Below are positions 23,636 through 57,215 of a stretch of 64,000 nucleotides of DNA, one piece after another. The position numbers and the translations under genes were made by a program. Source of the DNA: a bacterium (GTDB lineage Bacteria; UBP15; UBA6099; JBFMBQ01); NCBI GenBank assembly GCA_040752295.1, contig JBFMFE010000322.1, positions 1,682 to 65,681 of the forward strand, written 5' to 3'. The notes under the pieces are model-generated. The model ran no database searches. It saw only the letters and a program-made list of their open reading frames with translations, and was not told where the DNA came from. How positions within the stretch are numbered: the first letter of the stretch is position 1; each line of letters opens with the position of its first letter.

Positions 23636-23663
23636 TTGCTTTTTCAGGAAAAAGGTTTAGAAT
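23636..23663 (+). promoter_or_regulatory. sigma-70-like promoter (TTGCTT-N16-TAGAAT) for the giant S8 protease gene
   Basis: AT-rich island TTTAAAAAATTTGCTTTTTCAGGAAAAAGGTTTAGAATTTG. A GGAGGG Shine-Dalgarno lies 12 nt before the GTG start at 23691. Confidence 0.4.
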
Positions 23664-23690
23664 TTGATACCGGAGGGAATATAACATTCA

Positions 23691-42689: not shown

Positions 42690-42902
42690 GTTTTCCCCTC
42701 CTTCCGGCGTGTTTTTTCGAACGCCGGGGCGTCCGGTGTCAAGTGTATCATCCGCATTGTTATTCTGTAAACATCGGGAGGGGATCGAGAACTGCAAATA
42801 TCCGTTGCCGATGGTTTTTTGTCCGCGGATCGTGTATCATTCAATGAGCGTAAAATCAATAAAGACCGACGAAAAAGGAGCGGCGAACGAGGGAGAGGAA
42901 TC

Positions 42903-44231
42903 ATGAGGATTTTTCAGCAGGCATTGTTGTGGGCTGCATTTTTTTCGTTCTTCGGGGCACTGTCGCGCGCCGAGCTTATCCCTTCGTACATAGACAGGCT
43001 GAGGGGCGTCGTCATCGCCAGGGGCGAGGCTGAGGGGACGCCCGGCGCGTCGCACGCTCAGCTTCGCTCGCTCGCCATCGAGGACGCGCGCAGGAACGTC
43101 ACGATCGTTCTCGAGAGGGAGAGCCTGACCGACAGGGAAACCATAGGGGAGCACCTCTCGGCGTACCCCGAGAAGCGCCAGGTCCTGAGGCTGTTCGTCG
43201 AATCCGCGACGATAATCAACCAGAACGTCGCCGCGGACGGGAAGGTGGAGGTGACGATCAGCCTGCCCATCGGGGGCGAGGGGGGGCTTGACTCGGTGAA
43301 GGGGTGGCTCAGAGGGGAGCGGACCGGGCCGCCCGGGTTCCAGGCGTTCGCGGGCGGCACGGAAGGCGAGCCGTTCCGCACGGGCGCCCTCGCTCCGTCG
43401 AGGAAGGAGAAATTGAAGAAGACGAGGGAGCCGAAGCGCCTCGTTTTCATGACGCTCGAAAACAGGACGGGCTTTGAGGGAATTGACGCGGGCGAGGAGT
43501 TCACCCGGCGTCTCAAGGAACGTTTCAGGAGGGACCGGAGATTCGTCATCCTGCCGCCCGAAGAGTCGGCAAAAGCGCTCGAAGAGAGCGACATGACGGT
43601 TGAGGAACTGATGAACTCCGACGTGACGGACAGGGTGCGGGTGCGGGGCGCGGACGGCGTCATCGTCGGCGCCGTTTCTAAATACGAGTCGAAAGTCAAC
43701 AAGATCGGTCCCGGCGGACTGGGGTACCTCGAAGTCTGGTTCAACGCGGCGGTTGACATGCGCATACTCGACGCCGCCGCAAAGAGGTGGGTCTTCTACG
43801 AGGAAATACCCGTTTCGCTCAAGGACACCACGTTCACCCTGAAATCCGCTGACGACGCCGATAAGTTCATCCAGATGACCAGCCTGGACTCGGAGCGCGG
43901 GCTTGCCGCAAGGGCGTTCAACGAACTGATAGCAAAAGCCGAGAAGGTCGTCAGAACGTCTTTCCCGCTTGAAGGGTACGTGTTGAGAACGCTCGGCGAC
44001 AGGGTGTACATCAACCTCACCGTCGCCGACGGCGTCAGGGAGGACGACGTGCTCACGGTGTACCGCATCGGAGAGACGCTCGTGGACCCGGTCACGGGAG
44101 AGGAAATTGACGAAATAAGGGACATCATTGGAACGATCAGGGTGACGGCGGTCTGGGACACGTACTCGCAGGCGGCGGTCGAAGAGATCGGCAGGATGAT
44201 AGTCGAGGGCGACGTCGTGACGCTCAGGTGA
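42903..44231 (+). CDS. secreted hypothetical protein (possible CsgG/LpoB/LPP20-like periplasmic fold)
   Basis: Signal peptide MRIFQQALLWAAFFSFFGALSRA and a GAGGGAGAGGAA Shine-Dalgarno. The core KRLVFMTLENRTGFEGIDAGEEFTRRLKERF...RFVILPPEE is reminiscent of CsgG/LpoB-type periplasmic domains. Tentative. Confidence 0.5.
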   Translation: MRIFQQALLWAAFFSFFGALSRAELIPSYIDRLRGVVIARGEAEGTPGASHAQLRSLAIEDARRNVTIVLERESLTDRETIGEHLSAYPEKRQVLRLFVESATIINQNVAADGKVEVTISLPIGGEGGLDSVKGWLRGERTGPPGFQAFAGGTEGEPFRTGALAPSRKEKLKKTREPKRLVFMTLENRTGFEGIDAGEEFTRRLKERFRRDRRFVILPPEESAKALEESDMTVEELMNSDVTDRVRVRGADGVIVGAVSKYESKVNKIGPGGLGYLEVWFNAAVDMRILDAAAKRWVFYEEIPVSLKDTTFTLKSADDADKFIQMTSLDSERGLAARAFNELIAKAEKVVRTSFPLEGYVLRTLGDRVYINLTVADGVREDDVLTVYRIGETLVDPVTGEEIDEIRDIIGTIRVTAVWDTYSQAAVEEIGRMIVEGDVVTLR

Positions 44232-44279
44232 AGTCTTCCGGAGACGTGAAAATAACTCAGCCGGGCGGCGGTTTCTGAA

Positions 44280-45215
44280 ATGACCGATGCGAAAGCAACC
44301 CGAGCCGTACGCGCGACGGCGGCGGCGTTTTTCCTCGCGCTGTGCGTTTTTGCGGCGGCAGCGCCTCCGGGCGCCGCAGAGCGGATATTTCTCGAGAACC
44401 GCTATGAACGGGGCGACGTGTACGTCTATTCGCTTAAGATGACGGGCAGGGGCAGTTCCATGGTTCTGGGGGCTGCCGACCCGGCGTTGAGAAATCAGGA
44501 GTTCTTCATGGAAATCAGGAACGGGATGGAGATGAAGGTGCTGGAAGTCGCCGAGGACGGCGCCGCCGCCATCGAAGGGAGGGTGACGGACTGGTCGGTG
44601 AGTTTCAACGACGCGGTAATATCTTCGCCGGAGAAGGCGGAGAAGCTTCCCGCGGACTCTCCCATGAAAAAGCTCACCGAGCCGTTCCTCATGAAGGTCG
44701 CAAAGGACGGCAGGGTGCTCGAATTCAGCGGCTCCATCGTGGAGTCCGAGCTGTTTCCCATCAGGACAGGCGAGGCGCTGGGCGGGTGGTCGCACGCCGT
44801 GTTTCCGGACCATCCCGTCAGCGTCGGCGAGACATGGAAGGGGCAGATGCCTCTTTTTCCCGGGGGAGGGAAGGACGCGCCCGCCGTTAACGTGGAGTAT
44901 GTTCTGGAGGGGATCGAAAGCGTGAAGGGACTCGCGTGCGCCGTCATCGAGGCGAGGACGGACGCGGACGTGCCCGAAATCAATGAAAAATTCTTCTCGG
45001 CGCCCCCTTTCGCAGGCGCAGGCGTTGAAATGAAAAAACTCAAACAGAAACTGAACGGTAAAATCTACTTCGCCCACGCGGAGGGCATAATGGTCGCCTA
45101 CGAGTTCTCCATGCGGCAGGAAAGCGAAATGAGGGTCAGGAATCCCCTGTCGCGGAAGAAGCCCATCGAGATGAAAGTCGTGATGGACATGGAGGGGCTT
45201 TTGAACCTCGAGTGA
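44280..45215 (+). CDS. secreted hypothetical protein
   Basis: Signal peptide (AAFFLALCVFAAAAPPGAAE). 311 aa with no recognisable catalytic motif. Confidence 0.5.
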   Translation: MTDAKATRAVRATAAAFFLALCVFAAAAPPGAAERIFLENRYERGDVYVYSLKMTGRGSSMVLGAADPALRNQEFFMEIRNGMEMKVLEVAEDGAAAIEGRVTDWSVSFNDAVISSPEKAEKLPADSPMKKLTEPFLMKVAKDGRVLEFSGSIVESELFPIRTGEALGGWSHAVFPDHPVSVGETWKGQMPLFPGGGKDAPAVNVEYVLEGIESVKGLACAVIEARTDADVPEINEKFFSAPPFAGAGVEMKKLKQKLNGKIYFAHAEGIMVAYEFSMRQESEMRVRNPLSRKKPIEMKVVMDMEGLLNLE

Positions 45216-45296
45216 AACTCGGAGCTGAACCTGCCGCGTCGTGAACCCGCGGACCGGGGTTTTCGGACGCGCCGAAAAAAAACCGGAGCTGCGCCG

Positions 45297-46442
45297 ATGA
45301 AATCCATTCATGAATGGGAAGAAAGAACTCTGGCGGAGTACGCCGTGAAAAGCGCAGGGACGCGCGGCAGGGAGTACGCGGAGGAGGAGCACCCGTATCG
45401 CAGTCCCTTCCAGCGGGACCGCGACAGGGTGATACACTCGTCGGCTTTCCGCCGGCTCGAATTCAAGACGCAGGTGTTCGTGCCCTTCGAGAGCGACTAC
45501 TACCGGACGCGGTTGACGCACACCATCGAGGTCGCGCAGATATCGCGGACATGCGCCAAGCGCCTGCGCCTCAACGAGGAGCTTACCGAGGCGGTGGCGC
45601 TCGCCCACGACATCGGTCATCCGCCCTTCGGACACACCGGGGAGGAAGTGCTCCACCACTTGATGAGAAAGCACGGCGGCTTCGAGCACAACCGCCAGGG
45701 GCTGAGGATCGTGGAGAAGCTGGAGTCGCGCTACCCCGGGTTTCCGGGATTGAACCTGACCTGGGAGGTGCGCGAGGGCGTTTCGAAGCACCGCACATCC
45801 TTCGACGTGCCGGAACTGGGATTCGTCAGGGGCACGCTGCCCTCGCTGGAGGCGCAGGTCGTGAACAGGGCTGACGAGATCACCTACATATCTCACGACA
45901 CGGACGATGGACTCAAATCCGGAATCCTCGGGGAAGACGAACTGAGGGGGCTCGAAATATGCAAGCCGATTTTTAAGGTCATTGACGGCAACCCGGCGCT
46001 TGCCGGCAACGTCAAGATGAGACGCTACCAGCTCATTCGGATGCTCATAGACGCGATGGTGTCCGATCTCGTCGGGGAAACGGAGAGGAACGTCGGGCGG
46101 ATGGGCTTCCGGTCGGTGGACGACGTGAGACGGGCGGACGGGGAAGCGGTGTGTTTCAGCGGGGGAATGGAGCGGAAGGCGGGCGAACTGCGCGACTGCC
46201 TCTATGAGCGGTTTTACAAACATCGCCGGATCAGGCGGATGGCGGGGTTTGCGAAGAAGTACGTAACGGGACTTTTCGAGTATTACCTTAAAAACCTCCG
46301 GGAGGTTTCCGAGGATTTCAGAGGGGGGGCGGCGGACGAGCCGCCACACAGAATCGTCTGCGACTACGTCGCGGGCATGACCGACAGGTTCGCCGTCAGG
46401 GACTACAAGAGAATTGCGAAGCGCGGGAGAAAGAGGAGGTAA
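45297..46442 (+). CDS. dgt: dGTP triphosphohydrolase-like HD-domain protein (Dgt family, short form)
   Basis: RSPFQRDRDRVIHSSAFRRLEFKTQVF...RTRLTHTIEVAQISR...LAHDIGHPPFGHTGE is the HD-domain dGTPase signature. The C-terminus has DYVAGMTDRFA. Confidence 0.85.
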   Translation: MKSIHEWEERTLAEYAVKSAGTRGREYAEEEHPYRSPFQRDRDRVIHSSAFRRLEFKTQVFVPFESDYYRTRLTHTIEVAQISRTCAKRLRLNEELTEAVALAHDIGHPPFGHTGEEVLHHLMRKHGGFEHNRQGLRIVEKLESRYPGFPGLNLTWEVREGVSKHRTSFDVPELGFVRGTLPSLEAQVVNRADEITYISHDTDDGLKSGILGEDELRGLEICKPIFKVIDGNPALAGNVKMRRYQLIRMLIDAMVSDLVGETERNVGRMGFRSVDDVRRADGEAVCFSGGMERKAGELRDCLYERFYKHRRIRRMAGFAKKYVTGLFEYYLKNLREVSEDFRGGAADEPPHRIVCDYVAGMTDRFAVRDYKRIAKRGRKRR

Positions 46443-46505
46443 AAGGCGGGGAACTGTGTTCGGGCGCTGCGCGAAACCGGCTGATGTGCCGCCGCCGCGG
46501 CAGGC

Positions 46506-47420
46506 TCACAGTATCCCGAATTCCGAGAGCTCTTTTATTATTTCGCTCACAGCCGCGTCGTGGAGCGGCTCCAACGGCTGCGACATGATCGGAGAACAGA
46601 TGCCGATAAGCGACAGGGCGACCTTCAACCCCTTCACGTAGGAACTCCAGGGCTGCCGCCCGTGCGTGTAGATACGCCTCAGCCGGTTGAAAGCCGATTG
46701 CATCTTGTCGAGGGATTTCAGGTCTCTCTTCTTCGCCGCGTTATACAGCCCCGCGAGGAACGCCGGTATGAGGTTGGACGTGCCGAGGACGCACCCGTGT
46801 GCGCCCTTGACGAGGGCTTCCGCCGCGATGCCTTCGGCGCCGCAGAACACGCGGAAGTTCCCCCGGCGTTTGAACGTCCTGATCAGCTCGGTCATCTTCG
46901 AGGCTTCCGGGCGGCTGTCTTTGACTCCGATGATCGCCGGGTCGGCGCTTAACTTTTTCAGCGTCGCCGGCGTCACGGACGACCCGCCTGTGAAAGGCGG
47001 GTTGTTGTATATCATCACCGGGAGTTCGATTTCGTCGGCGATGCGGACGAAGAATTTTTCCATCTCGCCTTCTTCGAGCGGGAAGTAGTAGGGCGGAATG
47101 ACCACGGCGGCGTCGGCTCCTGCCTTCCGCGCGGCGGCGCCGTTTTTGATCACCTGCTGGAAGTCCGTGTCGGCGATGCCGGCGAGCACCGGGACTCTTC
47201 CCCCGGTTTCCTCGACGGTCACCTCGATTACGTTTCTCCTTGTCTCGCGCGTCAGGTGCGGGAACTCGCCCGTTGTTCCGAGGGGGAAGACGCCGTGGAC
47301 GCCGCCGTCGAGGACGTAGCGCACGAGCCTGCGGAGGGCTTTTGTGTCGAGCCGGTCGGGTTTCGACAGAGGCGTGACGAGCGGCGTTATGATTCCCTCG
47401 AGCCTCTGCAGTTTTGACAT
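46506..47420 (-). CDS. DapA/NanA-family class I aldolase (dihydrodipicolinate synthase / N-acetylneuraminate lyase family)
   Basis: GIITPLVTP......GVHGVFPLGTTGEFPHLT..E and the Schiff-base lysine context IIGVKDS match the family. The start is placed at MSKLQ (47420) to avoid a 40-nt overlap with tctA. Confidence 0.8.
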   Translation of the reverse strand: MSKLQRLEGIITPLVTPLSKPDRLDTKALRRLVRYVLDGGVHGVFPLGTTGEFPHLTRETRRNVIEVTVEETGGRVPVLAGIADTDFQQVIKNGAAARKAGADAAVVIPPYYFPLEEGEMEKFFVRIADEIELPVMIYNNPPFTGGSSVTPATLKKLSADPAIIGVKDSRPEASKMTELIRTFKRRGNFRVFCGAEGIAAEALVKGAHGCVLGTSNLIPAFLAGLYNAAKKRDLKSLDKMQSAFNRLRRIYTHGRQPWSSYVKGLKVALSLIGICSPIMSQPLEPLHDAAVSEIIKELSEFGIL

Positions 47421-47424
47421 GTAC

Positions 47425-48900
47425 CTATGATATACGCTTCCGTTTCTTTTGCCAATCCTGAACAAGGGGGAGGACGAGCGAAAGGACGGCGAGGGCGATG
47501 AAGACCGCGGCGATGGGGCTGGCGATCATTCCGGCGACGTCGCCGGGGTGCGCGCGGAGGGCGTTGCGGAGGTTTTCCTCGGCGATGGGACCGAGGATCA
47601 CGCCGAGGACGAGGGGTCCCATCGGGAAGCCCTGGAGTCTGAGCAGGTAGCCGGCGACCCCCGCGGCAAGCATGAGGGTGACGGAAAACATGGTGTTGGT
47701 CATGGAGAACGAGCCGACGACGCAGAGCACGACGACGAGCGGCCAGAGGAAATGGCGCGGGATGTTAACGGCTCGCGCGAAGAGCGGGGCGCCGATCAGG
47801 CGTATGGGCAGGACTAACAGGTTGGTGATCAGCAGACCGGCGAAGAGCGCGTTCACGAAACCGGCGTTCTCCTCGAAGAGGCGCGGCCCCGGACGCAGTC
47901 CGTGAACGATGAGCGCGCCCAGCAGGATCGCCGTCACCGAGTCGCCGGGGATGCCGAGCGTGAGCATCGGGATCATCGCGCCGCCGGTGACGGCGTTGTT
48001 CGCGGTCTCGGCGGCGGCGACTCCCTCGATTGAACCGCTTCCGAATTCCTCGGGCTTCTTCGAAATTTTCCTTGCCTGGTCGTACGCCATGAAGGAGGCG
48101 ATGTCGCCGCCCGCGCCGGGGATCGCCCCCACGAGCGTGCCGATGGCGCTGGAAAGCGAGATCGCAGGGACGAGGCGCTTGAGATCGGCAGGACCGGGGA
48201 AGACGTTTCTTATCCCTTCCGCGACCCCGGCATTGCCGCGCGGCGCGCCCGCCTGAATCAGCGCCTCGGACATCGCGAAAACCCCGATGAGCAATGGAAT
48301 GTACGAAATCCCCTCGTACAGGTCAGGTTCCCCGAAGGTGAATCTCGGGTAAGCGTCGATCGGGTCGAAACCGACGGTTGATATGAACATGCCGGCGGCG
48401 CCCATTATCAGTCCCTTCGTGAGTGAGCCTTCGGACACGCCTGCGATGATGCTCAGCCCGAAGAGGGCGAGGGCGAACATTTCGAAGTAGCCTATCCTGA
48501 GGGCGAAGCCGGCGATCTGCGCCGCGACGAGGGCGAGGACGATCGCGCTTGCGACGCCGCCGCACGTCGAGGCGATGGCGGATACGTTCAGGGCGAGCGA
48601 GGCTTTGCCCTGCTGCGCCAGAGGGTAGCCGTCGAAGCACGTCGCGGCGGCGGCGGGTGTGCCGGGCGTGTGGATCAGTATCGCCGAGATGGCGCCGCCG
48701 TGCATCGTCCCGATGTATACACCCACCAGCATCATGAGTCCGGGCATGGGATCGAGCGCGAAGGTGAACGGCACGAGGAGTGCGACGGACATTGTGGCGG
48801 TCAGCCCGGGGAGCGCGCCGGCGACGATGCCGCCGACAAGCCCCGCAAGCATGAGCGCCGTGGTCTGAAGCGTGAGTACCGATGAGAGGGCTTCGAGCAT
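47425..48900 (-). CDS. tctA: tripartite tricarboxylate transporter, large permease TctA
   Basis: 491 aa. LAGLVGGIVAGALPGLTATMSVALLVPFTF and the repeated GxxxG-rich TM pattern are typical of TctA (DUF112). Confidence 0.9.
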   Translation of the reverse strand: MLEALSSVLTLQTTALMLAGLVGGIVAGALPGLTATMSVALLVPFTFALDPMPGLMMLVGVYIGTMHGGAISAILIHTPGTPAAAATCFDGYPLAQQGKASLALNVSAIASTCGGVASAIVLALVAAQIAGFALRIGYFEMFALALFGLSIIAGVSEGSLTKGLIMGAAGMFISTVGFDPIDAYPRFTFGEPDLYEGISYIPLLIGVFAMSEALIQAGAPRGNAGVAEGIRNVFPGPADLKRLVPAISLSSAIGTLVGAIPGAGGDIASFMAYDQARKISKKPEEFGSGSIEGVAAAETANNAVTGGAMIPMLTLGIPGDSVTAILLGALIVHGLRPGPRLFEENAGFVNALFAGLLITNLLVLPIRLIGAPLFARAVNIPRHFLWPLVVVLCVVGSFSMTNTMFSVTLMLAAGVAGYLLRLQGFPMGPLVLGVILGPIAEENLRNALRAHPGDVAGMIASPIAAVFIALAVLSLVLPLVQDWQKKRKRIS

Positions 48901-48943
48901 GTTTCCGGTGAGTGCTCCGTGCAGTCTCCCGGCGAGCGCCTCC

Positions 48944-49402
48944 CTAATAGCCGAAAGGCAGCGGTTGAAGCGGCACTTTCAGGAGGGCGCCGAAGAACAG
49001 GTATACGCCAATCGCCCCGGCGGCGGAAAACGCTAAGTTCCCGATGGGCTTCTCCCCCCTCATCCATTGCGTGGAAACGAAGAGAAACAGGGTGGTTGAA
49101 GGCAGGAACCCGAGGGGGTTCATCGCCATGACGTACGCGATCGCGAGGAGGAGGAACAGGACGGGGGAGAACGGGGCGGCGGTTTTTTCACCGCCCCCTT
49201 CGTCGGGGCGTTTACGTGAGAGAATCGTCTGCAGCAGGAGCGCCGCGCCGAGCGCGCCGAGGAAAATGCCGATCAGGCGTGGAAAAAAGGAGGGACCCGG
49301 CGTCCCCTCAGTTCCCGCCGGCATGAGGGAAGCTTCCCGCAGCGCCCAGACCGATAAAGCGATGAAAAGCAGCGCCGTGGTTGATTGTGCCGCCTTTTTC
49401 AT
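48944..49402 (-). CDS. tctB: tripartite tricarboxylate transporter, small permease TctB
   Basis: 152 aa with 4 TM segments. The position between tctC and tctA is canonical. Confidence 0.7.
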   Translation of the reverse strand: MKKAAQSTTALLFIALSVWALREASLMPAGTEGTPGPSFFPRLIGIFLGALGAALLLQTILSRKRPDEGGGEKTAAPFSPVLFLLLAIAYVMAMNPLGFLPSTTLFLFVSTQWMRGEKPIGNLAFSAAGAIGVYLFFGALLKVPLQPLPFGY

Positions 49403-49446
49403 GCCGCCCGGGTGGTTCCGCCCTCTTTCCGGGGTCTGACGTAGCG

Positions 49447-50439
49447 CTATCTGATCTCAAGCTTTTCGATTGTTTTCCTGAAACCCTCGCTCTGCTCCCT
49501 GACGAAGGCGAGGAAATCCTCGCCATCGAGCCAGCCGAGCCGGACGCTCTGGTTTTTCATCTTTTTCTGGAATTCGGGGTTGTCGTATGCCTTTCTGAAA
49601 CCCTCTATCAGCGTTTTTTTCACCGTCTCGGGCGTTCCTTTCGGCGCCGCCATGCCGCCCCACGCGCCGACGCTCACGGCGCTGCCGGTTTCGGCGGCGG
49701 CGGGCACGTCGGGGAAGTTGGGGTCGCGTTCTTCGTCAAGGACGGCGAGCATACGGAGTTTTCCCGCCTCGACGTTGGTCTGGACCTCGGCGGGGGCGAC
49801 GGTCACGGCGTCTATGTGCCCTCCGAGGAGCGATTTGACCGCGGGCGCCGCGCCCTTGTGCGGGATGTGGAGAAAATCGGTCCCGAGGCTCTGCTCCAGC
49901 CGTGCGGCGGCAAGGTGCCATATTGAAAAGGCGCCCGAGTTGCCGACTCTTATCCTGCCGGGATTCGCAGCGGCGTAAGCGGCGAAGTCGCGGAAGCTTT
50001 TCCACGGCGCGCCGGAGTTCACCGTTAGGGCGGCGGGTGTGTGGTTGATGCGGAAGAGGAGGTCGAAGTCATCGTACGAGACGGGGGCGAGTCCGCGGTG
50101 GGGGAGGATGGCGATTTCGACGACCACGTACGTGACGGTGTAGCCGTCGGGCTTCGCTTTCGCCCCGGCGCTCATGCCCACCGCCCCCGCCCCGCCCGTC
50201 TTGTTGACCACGATTACGGGGACGCCGAGTTCCTTTTCGGCGTAGTACGATATGGTGCGCGTCACGAGGTCGGAGGTTCCCCCCGGCGCGGGAGGGCAGA
50301 TGACCGTGATGGGTTTCGACGGAAACTTTTTTTCCTTACGGGAACAGCCCGCGGGTAGGAGTAGTGCGGCGGCGGCGGCAACAGGGAGAAGCAGCGCTGC
50401 GGTTCGTCGTCGCGTGCGGATCACGTCCTTGGGCGTCAT
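49447..50439 (-). CDS. tctC: tripartite tricarboxylate transporter substrate-binding protein TctC (Bug family), lipoprotein
   Basis: Lipobox LLLPAGCS. PITVICPPAPGGTSDLVTR...NKTGGAGAVG...PDGYT are Bug/TctC family blocks. Confidence 0.85.
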   Translation of the reverse strand: MTPKDVIRTRRRTAALLLPVAAAAALLLPAGCSRKEKKFPSKPITVICPPAPGGTSDLVTRTISYYAEKELGVPVIVVNKTGGAGAVGMSAGAKAKPDGYTVTYVVVEIAILPHRGLAPVSYDDFDLLFRINHTPAALTVNSGAPWKSFRDFAAYAAANPGRIRVGNSGAFSIWHLAAARLEQSLGTDFLHIPHKGAAPAVKSLLGGHIDAVTVAPAEVQTNVEAGKLRMLAVLDEERDPNFPDVPAAAETGSAVSVGAWGGMAAPKGTPETVKKTLIEGFRKAYDNPEFQKKMKNQSVRLGWLDGEDFLAFVREQSEGFRKTIEKLEIR

Positions 50440-51548
50440 TTTTTATAGGGTTTTTGCATGATCCACTCTTTATTGAAAGCGGCGTGCTTGATGTTCGTCC
50501 GCTTGTAGGTGTAGGTGACGTGGATGACGCCGTCCCTCGATTGAATCAGCGAGGGATACGAGAACTCGCCGAACGTTTTTTCGAGGTCGCGCTTGAACGT
50601 CCAGGTTTTTCCCTCGTCGGTGGAAAGCGCGGCGGAGAGGGGCGTCCGGTCGTAGAACGAATCGTTGTAGATGAGGACGAGGCTCCCGTCGCGCAGGCGC
50701 GCGAGGTCTACCGCGGCGTTCGGGTTTGGGAAGGCGGTCGGCTCCGGGCTGCTCCATTTTTCGCCGCCGTCGGTGGAGACGGTTTTCATGATGAAGCCTT
50801 CTTTTGCGCCGGTCCTCATGTAGGCGAGAATGGCGCCGTCCGAGAGCTGGACGCTGGAAGGTTGAATTATGCCCCCGCCAGCCCTGAGGTTGATGCCGGT
50901 TTTCTTCCAGGTTTTTCCGCCGTCGGTCGTGAGGATGAAGCCGGGCGTGAACAGCACCTCGTTGTAGATGGGAAGTATGAACGTCCCGTCGTTGAGTATC
51001 AGCGGGTGGTTGCGTGTCATCCATCCCTTCTGCCCGATGAGCGTGTTTTCGCCGCTCCACGTTTTCCCCTCATCGTCGGACGTGCGGTAGTGCACCTTGC
51101 AGTCGTTCCATGTGCTGCCGTACATCACGACGTAGAAGAACCAGACCCTGCCGTCGCCGTCGGCGAAGAGAACGGGATTGCCCTCGGAAAGCCCCGGCGC
51201 GTCGTGCAGGATTTCGGGACTGGACCATTTCTCCGCGCCGGGCGCGAGGCGCGAGCAGAAGATGGCGACGTCGGTCGCCTTTTCCGCCGCCCCCGCGTAC
51301 CATGCGGCGAAAAGCGCGCCGCCGGGCAGCTCCGTTACCGTGGAGCCGTGACACGAGGGGTAGCCGGGGATCTCGTCGAATATCAACTGCTCTTTGAAAA
51401 ACGGCTTATCCATCGCGCCTTCCTCCCCGGCGAACGTCGGCGCGGCGGGCAGACGCCCCGTCAGAGCGGCGAGCAGGAAAAGAAAGCCTGCGAATCGTGC
51501 CGTCCACGTGTTCATCAGCGCCATCACGTCCGGTTCGATGCGGTTCAC
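50436..51548 (-). CDS. BNR-repeat (sialidase/neuraminidase-like, GH33-like) secreted protein
   Basis: Four Asp-box BNR motifs: TSDDEGKTW, TTDGGKTW, STDGGEKW and STDEGKTW. There is a signal peptide, and the start may be at 51515 (MNTWTARFAGFLFLLAALTG). It overlaps the tctC start by 4 nt. Confidence 0.7.
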   Translation of the reverse strand: MNRIEPDVMALMNTWTARFAGFLFLLAALTGRLPAAPTFAGEEGAMDKPFFKEQLIFDEIPGYPSCHGSTVTELPGGALFAAWYAGAAEKATDVAIFCSRLAPGAEKWSSPEILHDAPGLSEGNPVLFADGDGRVWFFYVVMYGSTWNDCKVHYRTSDDEGKTWSGENTLIGQKGWMTRNHPLILNDGTFILPIYNEVLFTPGFILTTDGGKTWKKTGINLRAGGGIIQPSSVQLSDGAILAYMRTGAKEGFIMKTVSTDGGEKWSSPEPTAFPNPNAAVDLARLRDGSLVLIYNDSFYDRTPLSAALSTDEGKTWTFKRDLEKTFGEFSYPSLIQSRDGVIHVTYTYKRTNIKHAAFNKEWIMQKPYKK

Positions 51549-51579
51549 AATTATATCAGAAAGCCGGTTTGAATCGCCG

Positions 51580-52731
51580 TCACTTTTTTTCTTCCGTTTC
51601 CGCGAGGAAAGCGGGTTCCAGCGGGAACAGGATGCGCACGTGGGTGACGTCCGCGAGGGCGTCGTCCACGCGCCCCTTCACCTCCGGCATACGCTGCCAT
51701 TTCCCCCCCTCGATGCGCACCTGGACGATGTACATGTCGAGCATCTCCTCGATGGTCCTCCCCGAGGTTCCCATCGGGAAGTAAACGGGGCGCAGGTACA
51801 GGGAAAAAAGCGGCGCCGCGCCCTCTGTCGAGGGGGCTTCCACCGACGTGGGACCCACGACCATCCACTGCGTCAGCAGACGGGCGTTTTTCATCTCGGG
51901 ACTCATGGCGTGATTCTCGGGGATGATCTGGAATCCGCCGACTTCGCCCGGTGGCGACGTGGACACGCAGATGACGCCCGTGTGGTTCGCGCGGATGCGC
52001 CCGACGTCGGCGTAAAGCGAACCCGCGAACCGCCCGACGCCGGCGACCGGCTTGAGCACCATCCCGATCACCCTCGCGCCGCCCCCGGCGTAGCGCACAA
52101 GTATGCGCCCGCCGAAGCGGTTCTCGAAGACGATTTCCGACGGGAGCCGGACCGGGCGCAGCACCTTTATCTGGATCGTGTCCCCCTCGCGCGGCTGGTA
52201 CAGCGCCGGGATCGGAACCCATTTGCCCCCGTCCTTTAAGAAGACGGGGTTTCCGACGAACGGCGATAACCCGCCGCCGAATATCCCGGTCCCGGCAGGA
52301 ATGTCGGTCATTATCGAGGACGAGGCGCTGTAGTAGGATTTGTAATCCGCGGGTTTTTCGTACATTTCCGCGGGCAGTATGCTGAGAACGGCGCCCCGGT
52401 CGCCGGACTGCCGAACCTTGACGTGGACCGCGTTGACGGCGACGGCAGCCACGGACCGCTGCCACGCCCACCCGCTCGCGGTGTAGCCGCTCTCGTTCAA
52501 CCGCCCCGCCGCGGCGAGGACTGTGCCCGCTCGCTTCGTTTCCCCGCTCCGCTTGACGTAAACCCCGCCTCCCGCCCGGTTTTCGATCACGATGCTGAAC
52601 AGTTCCTCCAGCGCGGGATAGTTCTCTTCCGCCGCAGCCTCCGGCGCGCCGCGCGCGTTTTCGAGAACGGCGAACGACGCGGCGGAACACAGGACGCAGA
52701 GGACGGCGACCGCGGCGCACGCTGTCTTCAT
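51580..52731 (-). CDS. secreted hypothetical protein
   Basis: The start is placed at MKTACAAVAVLCVLCSAASFA (ATG 52731). 383 aa with no recognised motif. It lies in an operon with the sialidase-like gene. Confidence 0.5.
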   Translation of the reverse strand: MKTACAAVAVLCVLCSAASFAVLENARGAPEAAAEENYPALEELFSIVIENRAGGGVYVKRSGETKRAGTVLAAAGRLNESGYTASGWAWQRSVAAVAVNAVHVKVRQSGDRGAVLSILPAEMYEKPADYKSYYSASSSIMTDIPAGTGIFGGGLSPFVGNPVFLKDGGKWVPIPALYQPREGDTIQIKVLRPVRLPSEIVFENRFGGRILVRYAGGGARVIGMVLKPVAGVGRFAGSLYADVGRIRANHTGVICVSTSPPGEVGGFQIIPENHAMSPEMKNARLLTQWMVVGPTSVEAPSTEGAAPLFSLYLRPVYFPMGTSGRTIEEMLDMYIVQVRIEGGKWQRMPEVKGRVDDALADVTHVRILFPLEPAFLAETEEKK

Positions 52732-52902
52732 TTCACGTCCTTTGCCGTTTCGCCGTCGTTCCGTCTCCGGTTTTTCCATTTCAGCGCGGATTTTCCGCGT
52801 TTCTTCAGGGTTGCGTGTGGTTTTCTTTCCGGCGTCGTCCATCCGACCCGAACCGCCGGTGATTATCCCGTGCGTGGTTTTCGCTTTCGGTCCGTCGGCG
52901 CT

Positions 52903-54246
52903 CTACAGAAACATGGCGCCCGCGACCAGCAGCCCCGCCGCCGCCAGTCCCCACATGTACGGGAGGGTTTTGCGCGTGAACACCATCACGTCCTTTCCGA
53001 GGTATCCCGCGAGCCAGGCGTTGTGCGTGTTCGTGGGGTCGCTCACGCCCTGGATCATTCCCACCGAGAGCAGGGCGCCCATGATCGCCGCCGGGGGTAG
53101 CGTGCCGGTGGCGAGCATGACCCCGGCAAGCCCCGCGCCCATACCGTATATGTTGAGCGGTCCCCGGTAGAGCGCGAGGGGAGCGAGAAGCGAGAACACG
53201 GCGACGTATCCCGGGAGGGTCTGCGGCATGGCGCGTTTCAGTATCGGTTCCATGAAGCCGCCGACGGCGGGGTGAGTCACGGCGTTCAGGATCATGCCGA
53301 TGCCGACGAGGAGGGCGATGGCGGGCGCCGACGCGGAGACGCCCTCGATGGCGCACCTCGTCAGCCGCTGCACGTTCCCGCCGTCGGTCCTGAACGTCGT
53401 GACGACCCCGAAGACTATCCCGGCGAAGAGCGCCGCGTTTATGGGAAAATAGTACGGGTTCGGGGGTTTTTCGAGGAGGTTGTAAACGTTGAACGGCACG
53501 AGGAGAAGGATCGGGACGACGGGGGTGAGAAGCGCGAGCGGGTTAAGGCGCGGCGGTTCCTCGACCGGTCCGGTCATCGCCCAGAACGATGACACCCCCC
53601 GGCGCAGGTTGACGATCAGGAACAGAGATGCGACGGCGGCGAAGACCGCCCCGAACACCGCCGCGAAACGGAACACCTCCGCCTGCGTCAGCCCGAGCAC
53701 GCCGATGTAGACCGCCCAGTTCGCCGGGTTGAAAGTCCCCCCCAGGCTGAGTCCGAGCAGAAACAGGCACCCCGCAGCCTCCGCGCCCACTCCCGCCGAA
53801 AGCATTATCGGCATCACGAGCGTCGCCACCATGATCACCGCGCCCAGCCCCCCCAGCGTCGTGAAAAGCACCGCTGTGGCGCCCGTGAGAAGGAAGCAGA
53901 CCGCGACCGGGCTGTCGCCGCCCAGCTCCGAAGCCCATCGTATCATCGCCTTCGATACGCCGGACGCCTTCAGCAGTTCCGCCAGGACGGCGCCGAGGAT
54001 TATCGTCACCATCACGTTCGCCAGACGCACCGTCCCTTCGGCGATCACGACGCCGAAGAAGTCCTTCGCGAGAACCACGGCGTGGGACCCCGGATAGACC
54101 GGTCGGACGCCGTAGTGGAATATTCCCCCGGCGATGAAGAGCGCCGCCGCCATGAGGGGCAGCGCGATGAGCGCCGGAAGTTTCCCGAGGTACATCAGCG
54201 CCGCGAACGCGAGGAACACGGCGACCAGAGCGAGTCCTATCATCAT
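52903..54246 (-). CDS. ion-transporter-superfamily permease (GntP/CitMHS/DctM-like, ~12-14 TM)
   Basis: The 447-aa ORF is hydrophobic and Gly-rich throughout. Assignment to a specific family is uncertain. Confidence 0.55.
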   Translation of the reverse strand: MMIGLALVAVFLAFAALMYLGKLPALIALPLMAAALFIAGGIFHYGVRPVYPGSHAVVLAKDFFGVVIAEGTVRLANVMVTIILGAVLAELLKASGVSKAMIRWASELGGDSPVAVCFLLTGATAVLFTTLGGLGAVIMVATLVMPIMLSAGVGAEAAGCLFLLGLSLGGTFNPANWAVYIGVLGLTQAEVFRFAAVFGAVFAAVASLFLIVNLRRGVSSFWAMTGPVEEPPRLNPLALLTPVVPILLLVPFNVYNLLEKPPNPYYFPINAALFAGIVFGVVTTFRTDGGNVQRLTRCAIEGVSASAPAIALLVGIGMILNAVTHPAVGGFMEPILKRAMPQTLPGYVAVFSLLAPLALYRGPLNIYGMGAGLAGVMLATGTLPPAAIMGALLSVGMIQGVSDPTNTHNAWLAGYLGKDVMVFTRKTLPYMWGLAAAGLLVAGAMFL

Positions 54247-54259
54247 GCGGGTGTGCCTT

Positions 54260-55657
54260 TCACCGGGCGCTTCCGCGGGTTTCCGGCGGGGCGTTTTTAA
54301 CGTGGGAATGCCACTGCGGCTTTCGGGGCGCGTCCGTCCCGGCGCCGGGGGCGCTCCCCGTCCGCTGCGGGTTTTTCCGCACGATCACCCTGTTTATCCT
54401 GCGCTTGTTCATGCTCTCGACGGTGAAAGTCATGTCTTTGAACACGACGCTTTCCCCCGGTTTGGGGACCTTTCCGAGCGTCGTGAATATGAAGCCGCCG
54501 AGGGTGTCGAAATCTTCGCTCTCGGGAAGGCGCGATTCGAGTACGTCGTTGAGTTCGGAGACGGGAATCCGTGCGTTGACGTGGAGCGTGTTTTCGTCAA
54601 TCCAGCGGTACAGGGGTTCCTCGGTGTCGTATTCGTCCCTGATTTCGCCCACGATTTCTTCGAGCAGGTCTTCGAGTGTGACAAGCCCGCTCGTGACACC
54701 GTGTTCGTCCACGACGATCGCCATGTGGACGCGCCTCTTCTGGAATTTCCTGAGAAGGTCGTCAATCTTTTTCGTTTCGGGCACGAAGTAAGGCTCGCGC
54801 ATGACGGCGTCCACCGACTCGTCCGCTCTGCCCTCGATCAGGGCGCGTATGAGGTCTTTGGAGTTGACGATCCCCACTATGTTCTCGAGCGTGCCGCTGT
54901 AGATGGGGACCCTCGAGTGCCCCACGTTTTCGACGAACGAAGCCATCTTCCCGATGGTGATTTCCCTGGGCGCGCACGCCATGTCGGGTCTGGGCACCAT
55001 GACCTCTTTCACGTAGGTGTCGCCGAACTCGAATATGCTGTGGATCATCTCCCGCTCGTCCTTCTCGATCACGCCCTCCTCTTCGCCGGTGGTTACCATG
55101 CCGAGGATTTCCGCCTCCGTGACGAACGGTCCCTCGCGCGCGGGCTTCCCGCCGAACAGCCTGATGATCCGGTTGCTGGCTGTCATCATGATCCACGTGA
55201 AGGGGGTTATCAGCCGGTCCACGAGCACGAGGGGTCTGATCGCCGCCATGGAGTACCGCTCCGGGTTGTGCACGGCGAGTATCTTCGGGATGATCTCCCC
55301 GAACGTGATGAACACCACCGCCACCGTCATGATGCTTATGGTCGGCTCCACCCACCCGGGAGGGCGCAGGTCGTGCGCGGAAACGACTGAATGGACGATC
55401 TTCGTCATGACCCACTCGGCGCTGATCGCGACGAAGTTGATGCCGATCAGCATCGTGGTGAGCAGCTTGTTGGGGTTGTCCAGCCAGAGCTTAATCGCGC
55501 CCTCGCGCCGGTGGTCCTTCCTCGCGATCTCCTTGAGCCTGTGGCGGCTCATCGCCACGAGCGCCGTCTCGACCGAGGAAAAGAACGCGCCGCTCAGAAA
55601 CAGGCACACCAGTATTACGACGAGGTAAAAAGGAATCGTTTCCAAACCTGTGATCAA
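54260..55657 (-). CDS. HlyC/CorC-family transporter (DUF21/CNNM membrane domain + CBS pair + CorC_HlyC domain)
   Basis: N-terminal four-TM DUF21 with SSVETALVAMSRHRL. CBS pair (VMVPRPDM...; VPIYSGTLENIVGIVNSKDL; MAIVVDEHGVTSGLVTLEDLLEEIVGEI). C-terminal transporter-associated domain. Confidence 0.85.
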   Translation of the reverse strand: MITGLETIPFYLVVILVCLFLSGAFFSSVETALVAMSRHRLKEIARKDHRREGAIKLWLDNPNKLLTTMLIGINFVAISAEWVMTKIVHSVVSAHDLRPPGWVEPTISIMTVAVVFITFGEIIPKILAVHNPERYSMAAIRPLVLVDRLITPFTWIMMTASNRIIRLFGGKPAREGPFVTEAEILGMVTTGEEEGVIEKDEREMIHSIFEFGDTYVKEVMVPRPDMACAPREITIGKMASFVENVGHSRVPIYSGTLENIVGIVNSKDLIRALIEGRADESVDAVMREPYFVPETKKIDDLLRKFQKRRVHMAIVVDEHGVTSGLVTLEDLLEEIVGEIRDEYDTEEPLYRWIDENTLHVNARIPVSELNDVLESRLPESEDFDTLGGFIFTTLGKVPKPGESVVFKDMTFTVESMNKRRINRVIVRKNPQRTGSAPGAGTDAPRKPQWHSHVKNAPPETRGSAR

Positions 55658-55833
55658 CAGTGAATATAACCCATCCCCCGCGGGAATGTCAAATCGGGGC
55701 GGTCCGGCGCGGCGGGCGGCGCGGAACCTGTCTCGCTGCTTCGGCGCTTTACCGGCAGCGGTCTTTCCCGCCGCCCTTCAGGTCAGTCCCCTGTAAGCGT
55801 TGACTTTAAGAGCCATACCGATATATTGCAAAA

Positions 55834-55928
55834 ACGAATGTCGAATAACGAATTTCGAATTATGAAGTCCTCCTTCGTCTCCGTTGTCCTTCGACATTCT
55901 GCGGTTCCTTGTTCGATATTCGATGTTC
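55834..55928. repeat. palindromic repeat element copy B (ACGAATGTCGAATAACGAA ... CTTCGACATTCTGCGGTTCC TTGTTCGATATTCGATGTTC)
   Basis: It shares the CGAATGTCGAATA(T/A)CGAA arm, the CCGCGGAAT(A/G)TCGAAGG inner arm (present here in inverted orientation) and the CTTGTTCG(A/T)TATTCGAT arm with copy A at 36591..36688. It sits upstream of the corC-to-dapA-like operon. Confidence 0.5.
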
Positions 55929-55949
55929 TGTTAAGTTAACGCTTATGGG

Positions 55950-57215
55950 TCAGTCCCCGAATTTCTCTTTGACCGCCCTGAACGACGCGTCCGCTGCTTC
56001 AAGTGTGATCTCCACGTCTTTTTCGGTGTGCGCCGTGGAGACGAACCAGTTGTGGTGCGGGTGGACGAAAATCCCGCGCCTGTTCATTTCCGCGCAGAAC
56101 GCCTGGTTGCGGAACAGGTCGTTGTCGTTCGTGAACCTCGCGTACGGCATGGTGGGGTTTCCCGAGAGGGCGAACGTCAGCCCGCGCTCCTTCGCCAGTC
56201 CTTCAAGCCCTTCCCACAGGAGCTTTCCGATGCGGTACATCGTCTCGACGCCGTCGTTCTCCTTCAGTTCCTTTATGGTCGCCATTGACGCCGCCATCGG
56301 GACGGAGCTGAACCAGTAGCTCCCGGTGGCGAACACCTTCGACGCCGCGTTTTTGAACTCTTTTCTCCCGAGGCAGGCGGAGAGCGGGTAGCCGTTGGCG
56401 AGCGCCTTGCAGTGCACCGAGAGGTCGGGGCGGAACCTGAAGAGTTCCTGCGAACCCTGCAGGTGGAGGCGGTAGCACGTGCGCACGTCGTCGAGTATCA
56501 GCACGATCCCCTTGCGGTTGCACACCGCCTGGACTTCCGTCCAGAACCCCGTCTGCGGCAGCACGCTGTCGCTCCAGTTGGGAAAATGGTACGGCGTCAT
56601 GATCGCGCCCGCGATCTGTCCTTCGTGTTCGTCCACCAGTTTTTTGAACGTCACGATGTCGTTCCACTTGAATGTGAGGATGTTCTCGCGGTCGCCGGGG
56701 ACGAGTCCGGCGTGTCCGGGCGTGCACCATGCGTGCGCGCCGTGGTACGTCCCCTCGACCATGATTATCTTCCGCCTGCCCGTGTGCGCCCGCGCGACCT
56801 GAAGCGCCCAGGTGGTCATGTCGGAACCGTTTTTCGCGAACAGCGCCCAGTCCGCGAACGGGATCAGCTCCACGAGGAACTCAGCAAGTTCCACCATGAT
56901 CCCGCCCGGGACGCTGGCGCAGTCGCCGAGCTTCCTCTGTTTTTCCGCCGCCTCCTCGACGCGCGGGTTGTTGTATCCCACCACCATGGGTCCGTACGCG
57001 CACAACCAGTCTATGAACTCGTTTCCGTCCACGTCGCGGAATCGCGCGCCCTGCGCGCTCGCTGCGTAGTACGGGGTCGCTCCCGGCGTCCTGATGATCG
57101 GCGACAGGTGCCCGTAGATTCCCCCGGGAATGACCCGCGCGGCTCTCTCGAAAAGAGCCATGGATTTATCGAACGCGCACTTTCCGCCGCCGCCTCTTTC
57201 TTCTCCGTCGCTCAT
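55950..57215 (-). CDS. class-III (PLP-dependent) aminotransferase, glutamate-1-semialdehyde aminomutase-like
   Basis: FERAARVIPGG..., GTYHGAHAW and the lysine context DLSVHCKALANGYPLSA parallel the HemL/AT-III active-site region. Confidence 0.8.
   Translation of the reverse strand: MSDGEERGGGGKCAFDKSMALFERAARVIPGGIYGHLSPIIRTPGATPYYAASAQGARFRDVDGNEFIDWLCAYGPMVVGYNNPRVEEAAEKQRKLGDCASVPGGIMVELAEFLVELIPFADWALFAKNGSDMTTWALQVARAHTGRRKIIMVEGTYHGAHAWCTPGHAGLVPGDRENILTFKWNDIVTFKKLVDEHEGQIAGAIMTPYHFPNWSDSVLPQTGFWTEVQAVCNRKGIVLILDDVRTCYRLHLQGSQELFRFRPDLSVHCKALANGYPLSACLGRKEFKNAASKVFATGSYWFSSVPMAASMATIKELKENDGVETMYRIGKLLWEGLEGLAKERGLTFALSGNPTMPYARFTNDNDLFRNQAFCAEMNRRGIFVHPHHNWFVSTAHTEKDVEITLEAADASFRAVKEKFGD

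Follow-up and report, generated by a model that had tools for sequence, protein, structure and literature searches.

The window, the whole 64-kb stretch of DNA analysed here, carries a run of eight genes on the minus strand between positions 46506 and 55657 (Table 1). Their coordinates and families, as listed in an earlier note on this DNA, are borne out: all eight open-reading frames are present, Pfam agrees with the families of all but the permease and the 383-aa protein, and codon-position GC (GC3 0.75-0.86) supports every one as a real gene. The same note had described a single operon, tightly packed with 4-nt overlaps, and this part of the description does not hold. The sole 4-nt overlap joins the stop of the BNR gene to the start of tctC (50436-50439), the remaining junctions being gaps of 4, 43, 44, about 55, about 171 and 13 nt, and by conservation the run is three blocks, not one conserved operon: corC, the permease with the 383-aa protein, and BNR-tctCBA-DHDPS. 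The functional unit is BNR-tctC-tctB-tctA-DHDPS (46506-51524), whose middle three genes encode a tripartite tricarboxylate transporter (TTT).

Table 1. Genes and promoter-like sites of the run, in window coordinates
Feature	Position	Strand	Evidence
DHDPS/NAL-family class I pyruvate aldolase, 4xky-like subfamily	46506..47420	-	Pfam DHDPS 6.8e-57
TctA, large membrane subunit	47425..48900	-	Pfam TctA 2.6e-149
TctB, small membrane subunit	48944..49402	-	Pfam TctB 1.5e-22
TctC, substrate-binding protein, probable lipoprotein	49447..50439	-	Pfam TctC 4.1e-58
Predicted exported sialidase-fold enzyme, BNR_2, COG4692-type	50436..51524	-	Pfam BNR_2 1.3e-68
Extended -10-like TGaTATAAT, 383-aa/BNR gap	51550..51558	-	Read from sequence; promoter scan did not flag it
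383-aa protein, predicted secreted, paired with upstream permease	51580..52731	-	N-terminal hydrophobic helix
447-aa polytopic membrane protein, distant GntP/IT-superfamily-like permease	52903..54246	-	Via homologue
CNNM/CorC-family protein (CNNM TM domain, CBS pair, CorC_HlyC)	54260..55657	-	Pfam, NCBIfam
Sigma-70-like promoter match TTGACA-18-TATATT, 11/12	55663..55692	-	Consensus match; directly upstream of corC

The three upstream genes are probably neighbours outside the BNR/TTT/aldolase pathway. No corC homologue lies beside the module in any related locus, and because this adjacency is not conserved we treat corC as an unrelated housekeeping gene. The permease and the 383-aa protein recur as a pair in other phyla without the remaining genes. 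The permease, assigned to the IT superfamily in the earlier note, has no significant Pfam match of its own; a 48%-identical Saganbacteria homologue (L088) matches GntP_permease (2.5e-7), and through it a GntP/IT-superfamily assignment is plausible but weak. The N-terminal helix of the 383-aa protein agrees with the export predicted for it, but the suggestion that it is an accessory to the sialidase falls away, its conserved partner being the upstream permease and not the sialidase-like gene.

The proposed grouping of sialidase-fold, TTT and DHDPS-family genes, on the other hand, proved to be a real and recurrent module. The same five genes stand in the same order in a divergent MAG (contig DAOSYA010000009.1, hereafter L008), at identities to the window of 55% for BNR, 51% for TctC, 63% for TctA and 49% for DHDPS, with TctB confirmed by Pfam, whilst the two loci differ in GC (52% vs 62%) and their flanks are unrelated. 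A search from the aldolase side returned the L008 copy (P0243) and a further homologue (P0244, 46% identity) directly after a BNR_2 gene. Among the real neighbours of BNR-family genes outside Poribacteria, DHDPS-family genes rank first (6 of 53 loci), these pairs being accompanied by CUT1-type ABC, MFS or TTT transporters, and BNR-DHDPS-transporter clusters recur in at least four phyla. Several observations count against a five-gene pathway. The aldolase is not adjacent to most close BNR homologues (L002, L003, L005, L007 and about 30 Poribacteria loci), and the DHDPS partners of BNR across lineages are not one clade. The searches turned up a TTT link to BNR in only two independent cases, the window and L008/L097, and there is no BNR or DHDPS gene near one TTT system of similar identity (L096, 50/64%). 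The 64-kb window also contains no gene that would dispose of an aldose product.

The BNR gene opens at GTG 51548, with ATG 51524 the likelier start, and its product begins with a signal-like helix, carries four Asp-box-like motifs and matches both BNR and BNR_2 in Pfam. Relatives of this type are named COG4692 in PMC12928451. The AF2 model (pLDDT 92.6) is a confident sialidase-type six-bladed propeller, which Foldseek superposes on the M. viridifaciens sialidase 1eur (1eur/1eus) at TM 0.79, so that AF2, Foldseek and Pfam together place the GH33 propeller and Asp-boxes in this protein. In GH33 an Asp about 25 residues past the first Arg is the general acid/base, and a Glu activates the Tyr nucleophile. 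We mapped the BNR residues onto NanC, NanI and the B. thetaiotaomicron sialidase (HMMER alignments to NanC, 4x47 and 4bbw); in the family alignment H57, E79, R235, R291 and Y321 are invariant and Q219 is near-invariant. Arg2 (R235) and Arg3 (R291) of the sialidase triad are kept, but the RIP-motif Arg is the invariant His57, which falls on NanI R266 when the HMMER alignment is extended without gaps. The nucleophile Tyr321 is likewise invariant, but the position of its partner Glu is Gln219 here; a single BNR relative has Glu there, and all the others have Gln or His. The invariant Glu79 is offset by one alignment column from NanI D291, the GH33 Asp acid/base, a shift within alignment uncertainty. 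With His57 for Arg and Gln219 for Glu, glycosidase chemistry is therefore not assured. The sialidase-like label thus stands for the fold, the Tyr nucleophile and two Arg, whilst by the Arg triad and Tyr/Glu pair, which the earlier note had itself named as the mark of a sialidase, this is not a canonical one, both sets being incomplete family-wide. In the window, L008 and L089 the BNR proteins have predicted signal peptides, whereas none of those beside oligosaccharide-type importers has one, a split which fits a glycosidase acting either before or after uptake.

The transporter is complete, with PF03401, PF07331 and PF01970 far above cut-offs in the order tctC-tctB-tctA, the full set known from characterised TTT/Bug systems (citrate TctCBA; BugD/BugE, Bug27, terephthalate TBP). 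TctC can be aligned along its whole length with solved TctC/Bug proteins, none of which, among the matches listed, is named for a sugar acid, and its top PDB match (4x9t) is an uncharacterised TctC. Unlike the characterised TctC/Bug systems it is a predicted lipoprotein (signal …LLLPAGC, the Cys and preceding AG being conserved in the L008 orthologue), and we know of no characterised TTT/Bug system whose genes have a glycosidase-like gene on one side and an aldolase gene on the other.

The aldolase falls below every NCBIfam cut-off, and of its description as a NanA/DapA-family lyase it is membership of the DHDPS/NAL superfamily that survives. NanA identity was rejected: the models score 101 vs 382 bits (TIGR00683) and 119 vs 281 bits (NF003164), and in the alignment with E. 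coli NanA the Asp191-Glu192 pair reads Glu-Gly and Ser208 is Gly, positions which we take to be the sugar-binding residues that define NanA. DapA Arg138 binds the distal carboxylate, that of aspartate-semialdehyde. A bona fide DapA was rejected too, Arg138 being Phe and TIGR00674 scoring 163.8 bits against a cut-off of 206.15. On this placement, which the earlier note had proposed as a check, the enzyme is by sequence neither DapA nor NanA. Schiff-base Lys165 and Tyr137 (NanA numbering) are both conserved, and the Arg138 position is hydrophobic, as in NanA (Leu142) and YagE, which suggests an uncharged aldehyde partner. The closest solved relative is 4xky (3.5e-60; next match 7e-38), deposited as a B. 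thetaiotaomicron dihydrodipicolinate synthase, with which the window aldolase shares an SSY(L/V)KGLK insertion and a G-x-E motif. 4xky has His where the window has Phe, and because DapA Arg138 is thereby replaced its DapA label is doubtful.

BNR relatives also adjoin DHDPS-family genes in E. coli, Pantoea, Ralstonia, Rhizobiaceae, Streptomyces, Anaerolineae and Acidobacteriota. The pairing occurs with SLC13 in 1048 of 5426 E. coli genomes, with an SSS transporter in Pantoea and Ralstonia, and with an Opp-type ABC in R. binae, S. meliloti, A. fabrum and Streptomyces. The E. coli and Pantoea clusters include a YhcH-family gene, YhcH being an anomerase that supplies open-chain Neu5Ac to NanA (PMC8141875). 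Fe-ADH, DUF1537 kinase and PdxA2 are always present in the proteobacterial clusters (the last two fused in Ralstonia), where the aldolase residue that corresponds to DapA Arg138 is Arg or Lys. Such COG4692-DapA-like-FeADH-DtnK-PdxA2 clusters are found in the E. coli glnS-nagE island/GR6 of BEN2908, on S. meliloti pSymB and A. fabrum pAtC58, and in Pantoea and Ralstonia. The window shares with the COG4692-DHDPS clusters the BNR signature His/Glu/Gln(His)/Arg/Arg/Tyr, an adjacent DHDPS-family gene and a dedicated transporter. It differs in its TTT importer, in a BNR protein predicted to be exported rather than cytoplasmic, in an aldolase from a different subfamily (with Phe, not Arg, at DapA-138) and in its lack of Fe-ADH, DUF1537 kinase, PdxA2 and YhcH; no homologue of Fe-ADH, DUF1537 (DtnK) or PdxA2 is present in the 64-kb window, and identity between the window proteins and their proteobacterial counterparts is only about 30%.

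From the gene identities, the propeller fold and its active-site residue pattern, the BNR/tctC overlap and the conservation of both the module and the wider BNR-DHDPS-transporter clusters, we infer a substrate class and an order of steps for the five genes: a non-sialic ulosonic acid would be released outside the cell, taken up by the TTT system and split by the aldolase. We give this reading a little less than an even chance. The sialidase-fold enzyme would be exported and would attack a carboxylated 2-keto-3-deoxy sugar, a Kdo- or KDN-like ulosonic acid and not Neu5Ac, at its anomeric centre, freeing it from an extracellular glycan or oligosaccharide. Lipoprotein TctC would capture the free acid, which TctB with TctA would bring into the cell at the expense of an ion gradient. 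In the cytoplasm the class I aldolase, forming a Schiff base through its conserved Lys, would then split the sugar acid into pyruvate and a neutral aldose, which would pass to central metabolism through genes outside the 64-kb window. A non-sialic, acidic keto-deoxy sugar would be a new cargo for the poorly understood TTT family.

The earlier note had pointed to catabolism of sialic or other keto-deoxy sugar acids, of which the broader wording survives and sialic acid probably does not. The module may share its logic with nan clusters (GH33 sialidase; NanT, SiaPQM, SatABCD or SiaT; NanA; NanQ/YhcH), namely, as we propose, a propeller that works on the anomeric centre of an ulosonic acid, an importer reserved for the sugar acid, and cleavage by a class I pyruvate aldolase from one and the same superfamily, and nan YhcH has a paralogue in the related E. 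coli and Pantoea clusters. A true Neu5Ac locus, with release by an exo-alpha-sialidase, TTT import and cleavage by a NanA lyase, would also suit the fold and its match to 1eur, the four Asp-boxes, the retained Tyr and two Arg, and a NAL/DHDPS-family aldolase that is hydrophobic where NanA has Leu142. We nevertheless regard such a locus as highly improbable and canonical Neu5Ac catabolism as unlikely: in the propeller active site His replaces Arg1 and Gln replaces Glu, the latter position being Gln or His in nearly all its relatives, and the aldolase fails both nanA models and has Gly at Glu192 and Ser208. The transporter differs from those of nan clusters, TTT taking the place of NanT, SiaPQM, SatABCD or SiaT. 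The suggested check for nanE and nanK likewise came back negative, tblastn with E. coli NanK, NanE, NanQ and NanT finding nothing in the 64-kb window, and neither a ROK kinase nor a ManNAc-6-P epimerase was seen in the related clusters inspected. The remark that TTT is undescribed as a sialic-acid importer is upheld by two sialic-acid transporter reviews, which name it only within a cited review title (PMC8461474, PMC9558349).

Loss of the Tyr-activating Glu and of one Arg would also be expected of a BNR protein that is no glycosidase and instead binds or processes the acid sugar, already free, in the extracellular space, ahead of its import by TTT and its cleavage by the aldolase. Such a protein might be an anomerase, a lactonase-like enzyme or a hydratase acting on an anhydro or unsaturated form; taken together we think these roles unlikely. 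NanM, a beta-propeller that works as a sialate mutarotase, is a precedent, and in E. coli, Pantoea and Ralstonia a cytoplasmic homologue stands with SLC13 or SSS carriers, which as a rule take small solutes and not glycosides. However, a YhcH-type anomerase already adjoins the BNR gene in the E. coli and Pantoea clusters, and in many clusters the BNR protein is cytoplasmic and the importer an oligosaccharide/peptide-type ABC system, a combination that fits an enzyme cleaving a glycoside after its import. It is distinctly unlikely that tctCBA and the DHDPS-family enzyme handle some unrelated carboxylate (e.g. a KDG-type acid or a hydroxyproline-derived intermediate), with BNR merely upstream: TTT systems and DHDPS-family enzymes are both very broad in substrate range, the orthologous TTT of L096 does without BNR and DHDPS, and most BNR homologues are without TTT, but the BNR/tctC overlap, the five-gene order kept in L008 despite unrelated flanks and the recurrence of BNR-DHDPS adjacency without TTT in many phyla all argue for a link. 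The dicarboxylic ulosaric acid Dha (3-deoxy-D-lyxo-heptulosaric acid), as proposed for the proteobacterial clusters, is very unlikely to be the substrate here. There the aldolase would give pyruvate and a C4 acid semialdehyde, Fe-ADH would form D-threonate, lyxo presumably giving D-threo, and DtnK with PdxA2 would lead to DHAP. The invariable Fe-ADH, DUF1537 kinase and PdxA2 of those clusters, the Arg or Lys in their aldolases at the distal-carboxylate position of DapA, and the nature of SLC13 and TTT as di/tricarboxylate-type carriers all suit Dha, but the Phe of the window aldolase, the lack of the three accessory homologues and the low identity to the proteobacterial proteins speak against it here.

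Extending the ulosonic-acid route, TctCBA might be the first TTT for a glycan-derived ulosonic acid (Kdo-/KDN-like), and the His/Gln COG4692-type proteins might be a distinct, mechanistically modified glycoside-hydrolase family which, with 4xky-like aldolases, would make up a widespread and undescribed non-sialic keto-deoxy sugar-acid route; we put this forward as possible but doubtful. If true, the route would reach from candidate phyla to one in five E. coli genomes.

The TGaTATAAT site in the gap between the 383-aa and BNR genes is a tentative internal promoter candidate for BNR-tctCBA-aldolase, a role that would be compatible only with the BNR start at ATG 51524.

The eight minus-strand ORFs described in the earlier note do run head-to-tail, from 55657 down to 46506 in the window (G+C 62%), and in all eight third-position GC is high (0.75-0.86), as in real genes. 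That observation was right in substance, but its packing and one of its labels were overstated: 4-nt overlaps, claimed for the run as a whole, occur at the BNR/tctC junction only, with the remaining gaps spanning 4 to ~171 nt, and the membrane protein called an 'IT-superfamily' permease had no significant match, its 48%-identical homologue matching GntP_permease (2.5e-7). The run is bordered downstream by a convergent HD-domain dGTPase-like gene and upstream, beyond a 292-nt gap, by a class III aminotransferase. Within the gap a near-consensus promoter match (TTGACA-18-TATATT) precedes corC; its -10 ends only 5 nt ahead of the annotated TTG start, so the transcript would lack a leader unless the start was mis-called. 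Also in the gap is an AT-rich segment in which motifs containing TTCGA recur. An Rfam search of 46000-56300 returned nothing credible, and no riboswitch ahead of corC.

Features in the window, with positions in window coordinates
Feature	Position	Strand	Basis or remark
Gap between corC and class III aminotransferase	55658-55949		
CNNM + CBS + CorC_HlyC (corC)	54260-55657	minus	Pfam/NCBIfam
447-aa membrane protein (permease)	52903-54246	minus	without Pfam family
383-aa protein, N-terminal hydrophobic helix	51580-52731	minus	without Pfam family
BNR_2 (1.3e-68) + Asp-boxes (BNR)	50436-51548	minus	Pfam
TctC	49447-50439	minus	Pfam
TctB	48944-49402	minus	Pfam
TctA	47425-48900	minus	Pfam
DHDPS family (aldolase)	46506-47420	minus	Pfam
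1170-aa ORF	42837-46349	minus	antisense artefact
Three ORFs overlapped by the 1170-aa ORF	42819-44231, 44280-45215, 45297-46442	plus	two of three without Pfam family
413-aa protein, MFS_2 transporter, 2365-aa ORF	20860-30788	plus	in succession

The run comprises three modules: corC, the permease with the 383-aa protein, and BNR-tctCBA-DHDPS. The eight window proteins were searched by tblastn against 83 loci carrying BNR relatives, drawn from assemblies and a set of 185,579 species-representative genomes, and in none of these was corC linked to the other seven genes. The permease and 383-aa pair adjoins BNR solely in the closest relative (L006, at a contig end) and recurs in two loci that lack BNR, a Saganbacteria MAG (L088; identities 48% and 51%, genes 1 nt apart) and L115 (47% and 49%), and is therefore a separate two-gene module; no permease was found paired with the 383-aa homologue in two further loci (L086, L114). 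The unconserved corC adjacency and the pair recurring alone rule out a single eight-gene operon, and the suggestion that the 383-aa protein is an accessory esterase or mutarotase for the sialidase-like gene found no support. In L003 BNR is preceded by a 384-aa gene that was considered as a homologue of the 383-aa protein; it proved to encode an unrelated PD40-like propeller and was rejected.

The third module, whose BNR and tctC genes overlap translationally, is conserved in unchanged order (BNR_2-TctC-TctB-TctA-DHDPS) on a second contig of 52% GC (DAOSYA010000009.1; L008 = L097), with identities of 55% for BNR, 51% for TctC, 63% for TctA and 49% for DHDPS, the TctB there being confirmed by Pfam. 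The flanks are entirely unlike those of the window (GH31, LytB, epimerase, Sua5). A metagenome scan for TctC orthologues gave 11 loci only, mostly short, and one tripartite tricarboxylate transporter (TTT) of comparable identity to the window's (L096) had no BNR or DHDPS gene at its locus; the BNR-TTT linkage is therefore attested twice only, in the window and in L008. Close homologues of the window aldolase are few, among them the L008 copy and P0244 (46%), whose gene directly follows a BNR_2 gene, and another, P0245, lies within a LacI-SSF-DHDPS-FGGY kinase cluster.

The AF2 model of the window BNR protein is confident (pLDDT 92.6) and superposes on GH33 sialidases (TM 0.79, 23% identity to Micromonospora viridifaciens 1eur). 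His57, Glu79, Arg235, Arg291 and Tyr321, among others, are invariant in alignments of 37 and 11 members. In HMMER alignments to NanC, R. gnavus IT-sialidase and the B. thetaiotaomicron sialidase, Arg235 aligns with the second triad Arg, Arg291 with the third, and Tyr321 takes the nucleophile position, whilst Gln219 stands at the catalytic Glu position, which is His in proteobacterial members. An N-terminal profile alignment places His57 on Arg266 of the NanI RIP motif and Glu79 one column off the NanI acid/base Asp291, an offset within the uncertainty of the alignment. The family thus keeps the core for carboxylate binding and the nucleophile, with two family-wide substitutions; judged by the criterion that the earlier note itself set, the window protein, with His57 for the first Arg and Gln219 for the Glu, is not a canonical sialidase. 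Signal peptides are predicted on the BNR proteins of the window, L008 and L089, and none was found in the proteobacterial, Streptomyces, Anaerolineae or Poribacteria proteins compared. Members of this subfamily, those of E. coli, Pantoea, Ralstonia and rhizobia among them, carry 'exo-alpha-sialidase' as their routine annotation; judged by its active-site residues the subfamily is widely mis-annotated, and metagenomic 'sialidase' counts probably overstate sialic-acid use.

The aldolase had been proposed as a NanA-type lyase, and neither NanA nor DapA fits on profile scores or residues. It fell under every curated NCBIfam cut-off, scoring 164 bits for dapA (TIGR00674; cut-off 206), 101 for nanA (TIGR00683; 382) and 119 for N-acetylneuraminate lyase (NF003164; 281). 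Aligned with authentic DapA, NanA and YagE from E. coli MG1655, it keeps the Schiff-base Lys and catalytic Tyr, but has Phe at DapA Arg138, which with the sub-cut-off score rules out DapA, and Gly at both Glu192 and Ser208 of NanA, which with the sub-cut-off nanA scores rules out NanA. Its nearest companions in a neighbour-joining tree are L091, L008 and L089, followed by PDB 4xky, L084c and L090 and, further out, YagE. Aldolases linked to BNR in E. coli, Pantoea, S. meliloti and Agrobacterium fall together in a separate clade with Arg at DapA-138, the position being Lys in Ralstonia; the BNR-aldolase pairing has therefore drawn on more than one DHDPS subfamily, presumably to handle distinct sugars. 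The B. thetaiotaomicron entry 4xky, deposited as a dihydrodipicolinate synthase, has His at the Arg138 position and clusters with BNR-linked aldolases, not with E. coli DapA, and its deposited name is thus probably wrong.

When every ORF lying up to 7 kb from BNR was clustered across the 83 loci, the DHDPS family proved the most frequent real neighbour outside the synteny-dominated Poribacteria (6 of 53 loci). In Anaerolineae the order is IclR-BNR-DHDPS-SBP-permease-permease, and a low-GC metagenomic contig has ABC genes, an FGGY kinase and glycosidases. An Acidobacteriota contig (CAWIVH010000015.1, 2735-15303; L084) shows the pairing expanded to an uncommon density: 13 kb hold three paralogues each of BNR and DHDPS, together with an SDR gene and an MFS gene that is either split or frameshifted. 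Around 30 Poribacteria genomes (L010-L038, L041, L055, L060) encode a cytoplasmic BNR-subfamily member in another conserved context, where a Zn-dependent dehydrogenase gene lies upstream, BNR is directly followed by a B12-binding radical-SAM (DUF4070) gene, and DHDPS genes are absent from the vicinity. A tblastn search of annotated plasmids gave 335 records with BNR homologues at roughly 30% identity, and in six of the seven inspected, Paraburkholderia being the exception, BNR has a transporter and a member of the DHDPS family as neighbours: Pantoea ananatis (Fe-ADH, DHDPS, SSS, 'exo-alpha-sialidase', YhcH, SDR, with PdxA2 adjoining), Ralstonia (DHDPS, ADH, DUF1537-PdxA fusion, SSS, BNR), Rhizobium binae, S. 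meliloti pSymB and A. fabrum pAtC58 (Opp-type ABC, DHDPS, BNR, PdxA, Fe-ADH, four-carbon acid-sugar kinase) and Streptomyces (DHDPS, ABC, BNR). The Ralstonia fusion, a 766-aa 'hypothetical protein' on R. solanacearum pM311693 (L109:4040-6340), joins a DUF1537-type kinase (SBD_N + NBD_C) to PdxA, which supports the kinase and dehydrogenase acting consecutively. Of 5426 complete E. coli genomes, 1048 (~19%) have the cluster as an island flanked by glnS and nagE, for example NZ_CP051700.1 1623648-1638803 (L113: DeoR, PdxA2, DtnK, Fe-ADH, DHDPS family, TerC, 'sialidase family', YhcH, SLC13), and the same gene set is found on plasmids and chromids of Pantoea, Ralstonia, Rhizobium, Sinorhizobium and Agrobacterium (L106, L107, L109-L111). 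The region was listed, without function, as GR6 of strain BEN2908, and the S. meliloti parallel pointed out (PMC12928451); we found no published function for this gene set. The transporter slot thus varies between clusters, being taken by SSS, SLC13, ABC of two kinds, MFS or TTT, as would be expected if it served uptake specific to the pathway.

The analysis shows gene identities, gene order, the BNR/tctC overlap and the conservation of the module; beyond this, we propose that the exported propeller enzyme would free a carboxylated 2-keto-3-deoxy sugar from a glycan, that TctC, a predicted lipoprotein, would bind the freed sugar acid for import by TctBA, and that the aldolase would yield pyruvate and an uncharged aldose. 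The working logic is that of a nan cluster, but the window proteins fall outside GH33 sialidases, NanA and DapA, and the locus belongs with the COG4692-DHDPS clusters as a reduced, TTT-using, exported-enzyme variant. YhcH hands the open-chain form to NanA (PMC8141875), so YhcH paralogues in the sister clusters fit a cyclic ulosonic-acid substrate. Kdo cleaves to pyruvate and D-arabinose and so would require a FucI-like isomerase and an FGGY kinase; five loci, L002 (64% identical) among them, have a FucI-like isomerase gene next to BNR, and in four loci an FGGY kinase adjoins BNR or a 4xky-like aldolase gene. These neighbours make Kdo a possible substrate, as a lead only, and neither gene was found within the 64-kb window. 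For the proteobacterial clusters, gene content suggests a route from the C7 ulosaric acid 3-deoxy-D-lyxo-heptulosaric acid (Dha) to pyruvate and a C4 acid semialdehyde, then D-threonate and DHAP, in which, going by RefSeq product names, DtnK and PdxA2 would convert D-threonate to DHAP. The residue pattern of the window aldolase and the local gene content argue against the Dha route reaching the window system.

The earlier note held that a TTT system would be an undescribed transporter class for sialic and related sugar acids; two reviews of sialic-acid transporters name TTT only in the title of a cited review. Literature searches on TTT with sialic acid, Kdo hydrolase or aldolase, COG4692 and 4XKY found no functional characterisation, and none described a bacterial catabolic pathway for Kdo, KDN or Dha. 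Were the substrate one of these common cell-wall and LPS sugars, BNR-DHDPS clusters would fill a catabolic gap. Ligands are known for only a minority of TTT binding proteins, and a tctC gene coupled translationally to a glycosidase-like gene, with an aldolase gene after it, offers a concrete, testable ligand class, the substrate being putative and the TTT linkage coming from two genomes. Elsewhere in the window, the 1170-aa minus-strand ORF beside the core is an antisense artefact (GC1 0.79, GC3 0.60), and the MFS_2 transporter, of glycoside-pentoside-hexuronide type, lies between a 413-aa protein without Pfam family and a giant ORF of 2365 aa.
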